Assembly: GCF_030384885.1 (NCBI RefSeq)
Contig: NZ_CP128613.1
Reading direction: 5' to 3' (one strand)
Length of the DNA: 64,000 nt
Origin: Escherichia coli
GTDB taxonomy: Bacteria; Pseudomonadota; Gammaproteobacteria; Enterobacterales; Enterobacteriaceae
Positions 27,665 to 32,434 of the stretch are shown piece by piece. Position 1 is the stretch's first letter. The number at the start of each line of letters is the position of its first letter. Position numbers and translations under genes: made by a program. Below the pieces are notes generated by a model, which ran no database searches, was not told the DNA's origin, and was given only the letters and a program-made list of their open reading frames with translations.

Positions 27665-28071
27665 GTGAAAAGGTGGTGTTCAGTCAACTGAGCCGTAAAT
27701 TTATTGATGAGAACGATGCCACGCCCGCCGAGGCGCAGCAGGTGGTCTATTACAGCCTGGCGATTGGTCACCACCTTGGGGTTATCGATTGCCTGGAAGC
27801 CGCGCTCACCTGCCCGTGGGATGAATATCTGGCATGGATTGCCACTCTGGAGGCGGGCAGTGAAGCCCGCCGTAAAATGGAAGGCGTGCCGAAATATGGT
27901 GAGATCGTTATCGACATTAACCATGTGCCGATGCTGGCCAACGCATTCGATAAAGCCCGGGCAACGCAAACTTCGCAGCAGAAAGAATGGAGTACCATGC
28001 TGTTAAGTATGCTGCATGATATTTATCAGGAAAATGCCATCTATTTGATGGTGAGGAGACTGCGTGACTGA
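27661..28071 (+). CDS. hycH: Formate hydrogenlyase maturation protein HycH, 136 aa
   Basis: Operon position and size. Confidence 0.85.
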
Positions 28072-28534
28072 CGTTTTACTCTGTGTTGGCAATAGCATGA
28101 TGGGCGATGATGGCGCAGGTCCGCTGCTGGCGGAAAAGTGCGCCGCCGCGCCGAAAGGTAACTGGGTGGTGATTGACGGCGGTAGCGCACCGGAAAACGA
28201 CATTGTCGCCATCCGCGAACTGCGCCCGACGCGACTGCTGATTGTCGACGCCACGGATATGGGGCTAAACCCCGGCGAGATCCGCATCATCGACCCGGAT
28301 GACATCGCTGAGATGTTTATGATGACTACCCATAACATGCCGCTGAACTACCTTATCGACCAGTTGAAAGAAGATATTGGTGAAGTGATTTTCCTCGGTA
28401 TCCAGCCGGATATCGTCGGTTTTTACTACCCGATGACCCAGCCGATTAAAGATGCGGTAGAAACCGTTTATCAACGACTTGAAGGCTGGGAAGGGAATGG
28501 TGGATTTGCGCAGTTAGCGGTGGAAGAAGAGTAG
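28064..28534 (+). CDS. hycI: Hydrogenase 3 maturation endopeptidase HycI, 156 aa
   Basis: Operon position and size. Confidence 0.9.
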   Translation: MTDVLLCVGNSMMGDDGAGPLLAEKCAAAPKGNWVVIDGGSAPENDIVAIRELRPTRLLIVDATDMGLNPGEIRIIDPDDIAEMFMMTTHNMPLNYLIDQLKEDIGEVIFLGIQPDIVGFYYPMTQPIKDAVETVYQRLEGWEGNGGFAQLAVEEE

Positions 28535-28701
28535 TTCGTAGACAAACATATTCACGTTTTTGAATCTGGACGTGCTATTGTGACGTTTAGACGGGTGTTT
28601 ACATATTGTGAATACTCGTGTGATCAACTACTATAGAAAAATAAAACCGAAGGAACGGGTAGTCCAGGCTTAGTCATTCAGGCGCTGATAAGGAAGTTAA
28701 A

Positions 28702-29013
28702 ATGCACATCATTTCGAAAGCGCCATTTGAAGAGTGCGCGCGCAAATATCCTAACGACGCTCTGGCTTTACACTCATTGTATCGGGTTATTAAGGAAACG
28801 GATTTTTCTACGCCAGAAGAAATGCGAACGGCGTTTCCCAACCTCGACAATTTTAAATATCGTAACAAATGGTACGTTCTGGATGTAGGCGGGAACAATC
28901 TTAGGGTTATTGCCTACATAAACTTTGTTAATAAGCGGTTCTTTGTGAAGCACATAACGAATCATGCCGAGTATGACAAACTGACACGTTACTACAGAGA
29001 GAACAGAGAATGA
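28702..29013 (+). CDS. HigB-like type II toxin (RelE/ParE-superfamily mRNA interferase), 103 aa
   Basis: Close architectural and sequence resemblance to K-12 HigB/YgjN (VFPNLDNFKY, VGGNNLRV); AAGGAAG RBS; not placed here in K-12 as I recall. Confidence 0.75.
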   Translation: MHIISKAPFEECARKYPNDALALHSLYRVIKETDFSTPEEMRTAFPNLDNFKYRNKWYVLDVGGNNLRVIAYINFVNKRFFVKHITNHAEYDKLTRYYRENRE

Positions 29014-29429
29014 CTGCTAATGCTGCACGCGCTGTTAAAGCAACAAGAGAACTGGTCAATGCAGTCCCCTTTCTGGGAGGCAGTGACTCAGAAGATGATT
29101 ATCGTGAAGCACTGGAACTGGTCGAATATTTGATTGAAGAAGATGACACCAATCCACTTATCGACTTTCTGGCGAGCCGCATTGCAGAGTATGAAAACAA
29201 CCACGAAAAGTTTGCAGAGTTCGACAAAGCCGTTGCTGCAATGCCGGTTGGCGTGGCGTTACTTCGCACGTTGATTGATCAACATAATCTGACCTATGCG
29301 GATTTGAAGAACGAAATCGGCTCTAAATCCCTGGTCAGTCAGATTTTGTCTGGACAAAGATCCCTGACGATATCCCACATTAAGGCACTTTCAGCCCGAT
29401 TTGGCGTTAAGCCGGAATGGTTTCTTTGA
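29010..29429 (+). CDS. HigA-like antitoxin with C-terminal XRE-type HTH, 139 aa
   Basis: 4-bp ATGA overlap with the toxin gene; C-terminal HTH (SLVSQILSGQRSLTISHIKALSARFGV). Confidence 0.75.
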   Translation: MTANAARAVKATRELVNAVPFLGGSDSEDDYREALELVEYLIEEDDTNPLIDFLASRIAEYENNHEKFAEFDKAVAAMPVGVALLRTLIDQHNLTYADLKNEIGSKSLVSQILSGQRSLTISHIKALSARFGVKPEWFL

Positions 29430-29440
29430 TTTTTGACAGA

Positions 29441-29540
29441 TGCCAAACGCCAGATTGCCCGATGTGCTGCGCTTATCGGGCCTACATGTCGCACGAACTA
29501 TGTAGGCCGGATAAGGCGTTCACGCCGCATCCGGCACGTT
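29441..29540. repeat. REP/BIME element cluster
   Basis: Two inverted REP-like palindromes (gccggataaggcgttcacgccgcatccggc type). Confidence 0.7.
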
Positions 29541-29543
29541 TGC

Positions 29544-32434
<2,891 letters not shown>

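Follow-up and report, generated by a model that had tools for sequence, protein, structure and literature searches.

What is the gene pair that occupies the interval between hycI and ascB in some Escherichia coli genomes, and how is it related to the higBA operon of K-12? The question arises from a stretch of 64,000 nucleotides of E. coli DNA (contig NZ_CP128613.1; the whole stretch is called the window below), in which two short genes for a HigB-family toxin and a HigA-type antitoxin are located between the formate hydrogenlyase and the asc operons. Very probably, the two genes form a complete and self-contained type II toxin-antitoxin operon of the K-12 HigBA kind, a distant paralogue of ygjN/ygjM that was acquired horizontally and is found in some lineages only. 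The toxin gene (28702..29013, plus strand, ATG start) encodes 103 amino acids (aa), the antitoxin/repressor gene (29010..29429, plus strand, ATG start) 139 aa. The toxin gene comes first, and the antitoxin start overlaps the toxin stop by 4 bp (ATGA), which suggests translational coupling. The two open reading frames (ORFs), their lengths, the overlap and the toxin-first order had been described in an earlier reading of the letters alone (the sequence-only reading), and their coordinates were confirmed from the ORF list and the sequence.

The toxin matches the Pfam family PF09907 (HigB_toxin) with 82 bits (cut-off 27; E=3.8e-23; profile positions 4-73 of 74) and by homology would adopt the RelE/BECR fold of mRNA interferases. 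It is 39% identical to K-12 HigB (YgjN, b3083) over 99 aa (BLASTP, E=4e-29) and aligns with the E. coli HigB structure PDB 5IFG_A along residues 1-100 of both proteins (phmmer, E=7.9e-22). Similarly, the antitoxin is 46% identical to K-12 HigA (YgjM, b3082) over 134 aa (residues 6-139; BLASTP, E=2e-45) and matches PDB 5IFG_B over residues 9-138 (E=2.3e-35). It is composed of an N-terminal HigA-like domain and a C-terminal helix-turn-helix (HTH) domain of the XRE type (HTH_3 at residues 85-138 of 139, E=1.5e-9). For both proteins, significant matches to solved structures were confined to the K-12 HigB-HigA complexes 5IFG, 5YCL and 6KML. The sequence-only reading had noted a resemblance to K-12 HigB/HigA at a different chromosomal site. 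The protein comparisons confirm the resemblance, and the sites do differ, hycI-ascB here and fadH-rlmG for the K-12 operon.

No published catalytic residues for PF09907 or K-12-type HigB were found in the accessible literature, and residue conservation was therefore used to judge the active site. In an alignment of 19 sequences, comprising the window toxin and 18 relatives (E. coli alleles, Klebsiella, Kosakonia, Salmonella, Photorhabdus, Xenorhabdus, Aliivibrio and K-12 HigB), the toxin keeps 17 of 17 family-invariant columns: M1, H2, I4, F35, P38, L48, D49, N50, F51, K56, G64, L67, R68, H88, E90, Y91 and D92. Among these, G64 was reported to be conserved in HigB toxins including that of K-12, and a G64V exchange inactivates the HigB of IncC plasmids (PMC8265657). 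Judged by conservation, the active site of the toxin appears to be intact. The antitoxin has 49 invariant columns in common with its orthologues and K-12 HigA. Among E. coli alleles, dN/dS (the ratio of nonsynonymous to synonymous substitution rates) is 0.03-0.16 for both genes at a dS of up to 0.15, which points to purifying selection on both while the alleles diverged appreciably.

The window carries a compact haplotype in which the leader/promoter region of the pair (28535..28701, plus strand; 161-bp leader at 28538..28698) directly follows hycI. Generic inverted-repeat and promoter scans of this leader returned nothing useful; operator and promoter were derived only from the alignment of leaders across haplotypes and genera. 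A 15-bp imperfect palindrome, TTTACA-TAT-TGTGAA (28598..28612, plus strand), is conserved across haplotypes and genera and is the candidate antitoxin operator. Its right half provides a putative -35 box, TTGTGA (28606..28611, plus strand), at a position conserved in the aligned leaders, followed at a conserved spacing of 17 bp by a putative -10 box, TACTAT (28629..28634, plus strand). A Shine-Dalgarno sequence, AAGGAAG (28690..28696, plus strand), precedes the toxin gene and is kept in both E. coli leader haplotypes. These two leaders are only loosely alike, with invariant columns making up ~45% of the window sequence, and have in common the invariant block GTGTTTACATATTGTGAA, which includes the palindrome. 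The core TTYACA-N3-TGTNAA is also kept in the otherwise unalignable leaders from Kosakonia (chromosome), Salmonella (prophage) and K. aerogenes (plasmid). In addition, TTGTNA, a 17-bp spacer and TAnnnT occur at one aligned position in five of five orthologous leaders, the orthologue -10 hexamers being TATAGT, TATCAT, TATACT and TAGAGT. In the 64-kb window, the frame TTnnCA-N3-TGnnAA yields 4 strand-hits; since the frame is self-complementary, these are 2 sites, one of which is 28598..28612. The palindromes of the K-12 higBA leader, TTGCCA-ATC-TGGCAA and TTGCCA-ATT-TGTCAA, have the same 6-3-6 geometry.

From these elements, the following mode of action can be proposed. A sigma-70 promoter (TTGTGA, 17 bp, TACTAT) would drive transcription of a bicistronic mRNA, on which translation of the antitoxin would be coupled to that of the toxin via the ATGA overlap. 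The N-terminal domain of the antitoxin would bind the toxin, as K-12 HigA clamps HigB. An antitoxin dimer would attach with its C-terminal HTH to TTTACA-TAT-TGTGAA at 28598..28612, occlude the -35 box and repress the operon. Upon depletion of the antitoxin, free toxin would enter the ribosomal A site and cleave translated mRNA, resulting in growth arrest. These steps, from toxicity and its neutralisation to ribosome dependence, binding of the operator and lability of the antitoxin, are predictions from homology; for toxicity and neutralisation, the purifying selection on both genes offers indirect support.

The pair fills the gap between the end of hycI at 28534 and the end of ascB at 29544. 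hycI (28064..28534, plus strand; from the ORF list and the annotation of NZ_CP027579.1) closes the formate hydrogenlyase operon and forms the left flank outside the module. ascB (29544..30968, minus strand; NZ_CP027579.1 annotation by coordinates and ORF list) encodes a 6-phospho-beta-glucosidase and forms the right flank, likewise outside. Alignment and base composition delimit an islet of 899 bp (28538..29436, plus strand) with a GC content of 43.4%, compared with 54-55% in the hyc and asc flanks. Synteny from hycE to ascF around the pair is as in K-12. The nearest complete genome is that of E. coli 2013C-4282 (NZ_CP027579.1), which is 99.9% identical over the region. There, RefSeq/PGAP annotates WP_000547556.1 as 'type II toxin-antitoxin system HigB family toxin' and the antitoxin, WP_000126291.1, as 'helix-turn-helix domain-containing protein', with the pair between hycI and ascB. 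The pair is already annotated in databases. Within its known family it is an ordinary member, as yet uncharacterised.

Downstream of the antitoxin gene, a pair of repetitive extragenic palindromes forming a bacterial interspersed mosaic element (REP/BIME; 29472..29535, no strand assigned) is found outside the islet. It is composed of the inverted repeats 29472-29487/29500-29515 and 29506-29519/29522-29535. The sequence-only reading was right about the presence of such elements and wrong in regarding them as a mark of the 3' side of the inserted DNA. The REP/BIME pair occurs in all forms of the site, and because identical REPs are present at the K-12 site, it is no islet boundary; it is part of the conserved hycI-ascB intergenic DNA. 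A query that included the REP stretch had 37 matches in the median genome. A sub-threshold match to the Rfam family naRNA4, a REP-derived nucleoid-associated RNA, lies on the REP that adjoins ascB (29505..29549; 39.6 bits, gathering score 59.5).

The states of the hycI-ascB site were counted over 5,426 complete E. coli genomes. At least part of the islet is present in 2,508 of them. Both genes (at least 80% of the query covered) were found in 1,091 (~20%), and ~1,400 (~26%) have the second half only, i.e. an intact antitoxin gene with the toxin gene deleted. Neither gene is present in ~2,900 of the 5,426. In most carriers, an ORF of 253 aa is located between hycI and the toxin gene (e.g. E. 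coli BDSF8-3, L006:460-1221; also L005, L007, L009 and L017). It encodes a signal peptide (MNIRTGMCAFLLSLVLPAQA), has no match in Pfam or PADLOC, and was found in some form in 2,300 genomes and at full length in 1,463. The window-type haplotype, with the 161-bp leader directly after hycI and no trace of the 253-aa ORF, is a minority arrangement seen in 192 genomes, 188 of which match the window leader at 90-95% identity.

Further variants occur at the site. In the three-gene arrangement, the Shine-Dalgarno sequence and the toxin ATG are 8 nt further apart than in the window owing to an insertion of 8 bp (CTTAAAAA; window 28690-28704 vs. L006:1375-1397); this could reduce toxin translation. Strain CFT073 combines the three-gene form with an extra minus-strand ORF of 142 aa between the antitoxin gene and ascB (L005:1723-2151), for which a weak DUF4259 match remained below threshold (E=0.011). 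In E. coli 2015C-3121 (L007:1899-2858), the hycI-ascB interval is interrupted by a transposase gene of IS621, an insertion sequence of the IS110 family, ~245 bp downstream of an orphan antitoxin gene and roughly at the place of the REPs elsewhere.

How did the site arrive at these states? In a K-12-like genome, 28538..29436 is replaced by a segment of 51 bp (L003:1633-1685), in agreement with the statement of the sequence-only reading that the pair lies between the formate hydrogenlyase and asc operons where K-12 has no copy. This segment consists of the leader and the first ~20 nt of the 253-aa ORF joined to the last ~25 nt of the same ORF and its stop codon. Its end stretch, continued beyond the stop codon, agrees with strain WP3-W18-CRE-03 in 32 of 32 bases. 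By these matches, the 'empty' K-12 site is what remained after deletion of the 253-aa ORF and does not represent an untouched ancestral state; the scar was apparently formed through a GGGATGT microhomology. The description of the pair as 'inserted', again from the sequence-only reading, is therefore too simple, although the base composition of the islet is foreign. There is also a form with the 253-aa ORF alone, in which the junction ...ACCAGCTCTGA|TGCCAAA is identical to that of K-12. In carrier strains, the toxin-antitoxin cassette is flanked by two CTGA repeats at exactly this junction; these would fit an insertion with 4-bp duplication and a precise microhomology deletion alike. The hycI-ascB interval is thus a polymorphic site with stepwise decay from the full pair via the antitoxin alone to the scar, a clean natural decay series.

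Relatives of the pair are found far beyond this site. The toxin subclade is widespread in Enterobacterales at 56-77% identity. The two-gene unit of 103 and 138 or 139 aa with the 4-bp overlap recurs in three unrelated settings: a K. aerogenes plasmid, where its neighbours are repA (IncFII), finO and traX; Salmonella P22-like prophages, where it adjoins a Cro-like gene; and Kosakonia, where an integrase gene is nearby. With tblastn, homologues were detected in 16 phage records and on 1,041 plasmids; 653 of these plasmids are from Klebsiella, and 524 of the 1,041 have the homologue at 60-80% identity. The E. coli islet itself was on the chromosome in every case and present in one copy (2,508 places, of which no plasmid accounts for any). 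One PLSDB entry of E. coli, the 4.9-Mb record NZ_CP134663.1, has the islet toxin at 99%; by its size, it is apparently a chromosome filed as plasmid and was not counted as plasmid carriage. Horizontal acquisition followed by retention in some E. coli lineages only appears to be the best explanation for the islet.

Several observations weigh against the reading as an intact, autonomous operon. The promoter has 8 of 12 consensus matches and falls under the threshold of the generic promoter scan. In orthologues from other genera, the first operator-like site is followed 38 bp downstream by another of the form TTnnCA-N3-TGnnAA (L011:3967-3981, L012:3973-3987, L014:3967-3981). This second site is degenerate in both E. 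coli haplotypes (window ~28636-28650), in which the 5' leader is ~30 nt longer, and regulation in the E. coli islet, with the upstream operator-like site only, may differ from that of the orthologues. The integrity of the active site is judged by conservation, the catalytic residues of the PF09907 subfamily being undefined in the accessible literature. No curated NCBIfam model matches the toxin or the antitoxin, and a literature search combining hycI, ascB and toxin-antitoxin, which was not exhaustive, found no study of the paralogue. The toxin gene is deleted in ~57% of the islet-bearing genomes; in many strains, the module is evidently dispensable or in decay.

The alternative that survives best does not dispute the genes and assigns them another purpose. 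The chromosomal pair or the orphan antitoxin might be an anti-addiction or exclusion module that neutralises plasmid- or prophage-borne toxins with 56-78% identity, or the intact pair might be a stand-alone abortive-infection defence. Both proposals are rather unlikely. A stabilisation or exclusion role is plausible for the orthologues on mobile replicons; the window copy, unlike them, is fixed at one chromosomal site. If the proposal were correct, E. coli would be freed from post-segregational killing by plasmids carrying a related toxin, and retention of the antitoxin both at hycI-ascB and at the canonical higBA locus would reflect selection rather than neutral erosion.

It is less likely still that the pair is a dead remnant in decay, whose toxin is inactive or unexpressed and which persists by inertia. 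The loss of the toxin in ~1,400 genomes and of everything in ~2,900 would be expected under such a scenario, as would an E. coli leader devoid of the second operator-like site kept by orthologues and a window leader allele that is rare and diverged (the 188 of 192 matches at 90-95% identity). However, both ORFs are of full length and keep all family-invariant residues, the Shine-Dalgarno sequence, the translational coupling and the promoter elements appear intact, and the low dN/dS (0.03-0.16 with dS up to 0.15) points to purifying selection through considerable divergence.

An assignment to the anti-phage abortive-infection systems of the PD-lambda-2 type, as a component or a reduced form, is improbable. 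PD-lambda-2 consists of a HigB-like protein, a HigA-peptidase fusion and a P4-antitoxin-like protein and defends against lambda-vir (PMC9519451). Its third component, related to a P4 phage antitoxin, is needed for defence (PMC9519451; Vassallo et al. 2022). As in the window pair, the first gene is HigB-like and the second opens with a HigA-like HTH region. In PADLOC, the toxin matches PD-Lambda-2_A (residues 1-95, E=1.2e-15) and the antitoxin the start of PD-Lambda-2_B (positions 9-115 of 402, E=2.1e-14), and orthologues of the pair are located in prophage immunity regions. However, the antitoxin with its 139 aa has no peptidase domain, whereas the 402-position PD-Lambda-2_B profile covers an HTH and a C-terminal peptidase (~400 aa). 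A third gene is missing, too: between the antitoxin stop at 29429 and ascB there are REP elements only and no ORF. Moreover, in PD-lambda-2 B is toxic and A rescues, which is the reverse of K-12 HigBA. With both the peptidase domain and the third gene absent at the window locus, membership in PD-lambda-2 was rejected.

Even less can be said for a three-gene unit in which the pair belongs together with the upstream 253-aa signal-peptide protein, the window copy then being incomplete. As implied by the counts, ~900 of the 1,091 two-gene genomes have the 253-aa ORF immediately upstream, and this ORF stays beside the antitoxin gene even after deletion of the toxin gene. Against this, the pairs of Kosakonia, Salmonella and K. 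aerogenes have no 253-aa neighbour, a form with the 253-aa ORF alone exists, and this ORF has a deletion history of its own. In addition, the 253-aa protein offers only its signal peptide and no Pfam or PADLOC match, and the toxin-antitoxin cassette has its own conserved putative promoter. The 253-aa ORF was rejected as third component; it is also unrelated to the DUF1266 protein encoded at the canonical higBA locus.

That the pair is the canonical K-12 higBA (ygjN/ygjM) displaced by a genome rearrangement, a possibility the sequence-only reading had itself raised and for which only the same Pfam family, the gene order and similar lengths (103/139 aa vs. 104/138 aa in K-12) speak, is practically excluded by a protein identity of only 39%/46%, when the DNA of the canonical alleles in 4,376 E. 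coli genomes is 95% or more identical to that of K-12, by the K-12-like hycE-ascF synteny and by the canonical higA that the nearest complete genome keeps between rlmG and fadH. The pair is a distant paralogue of ygjN/ygjM higBA, not a relocated canonical locus. Megablast with K-12 higBA among E. coli genomes returned canonical loci only.

The canonical locus provides a parallel to hycI-ascB. The canonical pair is complete in 2,825 E. coli genomes, and a further ~1,550 have a truncated toxin with an intact antitoxin; decay that begins with the toxin and retains the antitoxin is common to both loci. In NZ_CP027579.1, the rlmG-fadH site (L016:13954-15189) is devoid of higB; an orphan but intact higA is found there behind a gene for a DUF1266-domain protein. 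If the genome from which the window derives resembles that of 2013C-4282, the hycI-ascB toxin would be its sole HigB of the PF09907 family. At a further toxin-antitoxin site of NZ_CP027579.1, ygiV and ygiS are adjacent (L015:38382-40580), and no mqsR/mqsA is annotated between them. K-12 carries the mqsR/mqsA pair at this place.

An intact, autonomous operon of the K-12 HigBA type at hycI-ascB, which is the reading preferred here, holds nothing conceptually new and has practical consequences. Lists of E. coli toxin-antitoxin systems are mostly based on K-12, so that a second HigBA-type module has escaped functional study. This is relevant to studies in which 'all' mRNA interferases are deleted in order to assess their roles in persistence, stress or phage defence. 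CFT073 provides an example. The primers used by Norton and Mulvey for their CFT073 ΔhigBA mutant match the canonical locus, whose toxin was reported in other studies to be truncated in this strain, and the published mutant left the intact hycI-ascB paralogue in place. A survey of toxin-antitoxin systems in adherent-invasive E. coli (AIEC) and CFT073 makes no mention of hycI or ascB. The 'higB-1/ybaQ' of Rousset et al. is a different locus from the hycI-ascB pair.

Among the known systems named HigBA, those of Rts1/Proteus vulgaris and the CFT073 'HigA' of PDB 2ICT (PF05015 type) share with the window pair the toxin-first order, a toxin of the RelE superfamily, which is a ribosome-dependent RNase as predicted for the window toxin, and an XRE-HTH antitoxin (PMC11980606, PMC7781912). 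They differ in the toxin family, PF05015, whereas the window toxin matches PF09907 only, and in the antitoxin, whose HTH is N-terminal in the Rts1 type (PMC6987408) and C-terminal, at residues 85-138, in the window protein. On these two grounds, an assignment to the Rts1/Proteus type was rejected, and the catalytic residues of P. vulgaris HigB (His54, Asp90, Tyr91 and His92) are not directly transferable to the window toxin. The higBA of IncC plasmids has different gene lengths (a 351-bp toxin ORF and a 303-bp antitoxin ORF) and was described as closest to HigBA of Acinetobacter pAB120 (PMC8265657). Much closer to the window pair are the orthologues on Klebsiella, Leclercia, Enterobacter and Citrobacter plasmids, in Salmonella P22-like prophages and in Cronobacter phage JK004. 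Their toxins are 56-78% identical to that of the window. They have the same lengths, overlap and promoter/operator layout and keep the second operator-like site that the window copy is devoid of.

Among the systems closest to the pair is also K-12 HigB-HigA (b3083/b3082), whose structure has been solved (5IFG, 5YCL, 6KML). Toxin before antitoxin is the order by which hig loci are defined, and K-12 HigB (YgjN) cleaves translated mRNA only and is counteracted by YgjM (PMC2814082). Like the window pair, the K-12 operon is a toxin-first bicistron with a 4-bp overlap, composed of a PF09907 toxin of ~103 aa and an antitoxin of ~139 aa with a C-terminal XRE HTH. The N-terminal part of the antitoxin, responsible for toxin binding and dimerisation, is alike in both. 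Differences are found in DNA recognition: the half-site cores are TTTACA/TGTGAA in the window and TTGCCA/TGGCAA in K-12 higBA, the C-terminal HTH region reads SQILSGQRS in the window antitoxin and SRVLSGKRK in K-12 HigA, and the window leader has one operator-like site, that of K-12 higBA two or three. Because half-site cores and HTH-region residues differ, cross-regulation between the window pair and K-12 HigA is probably limited. Since the predicted operator deviates from that of K-12 at defined half-site positions, the mutual insulation of HigA paralogues could be tested with the two loci in a simple way.

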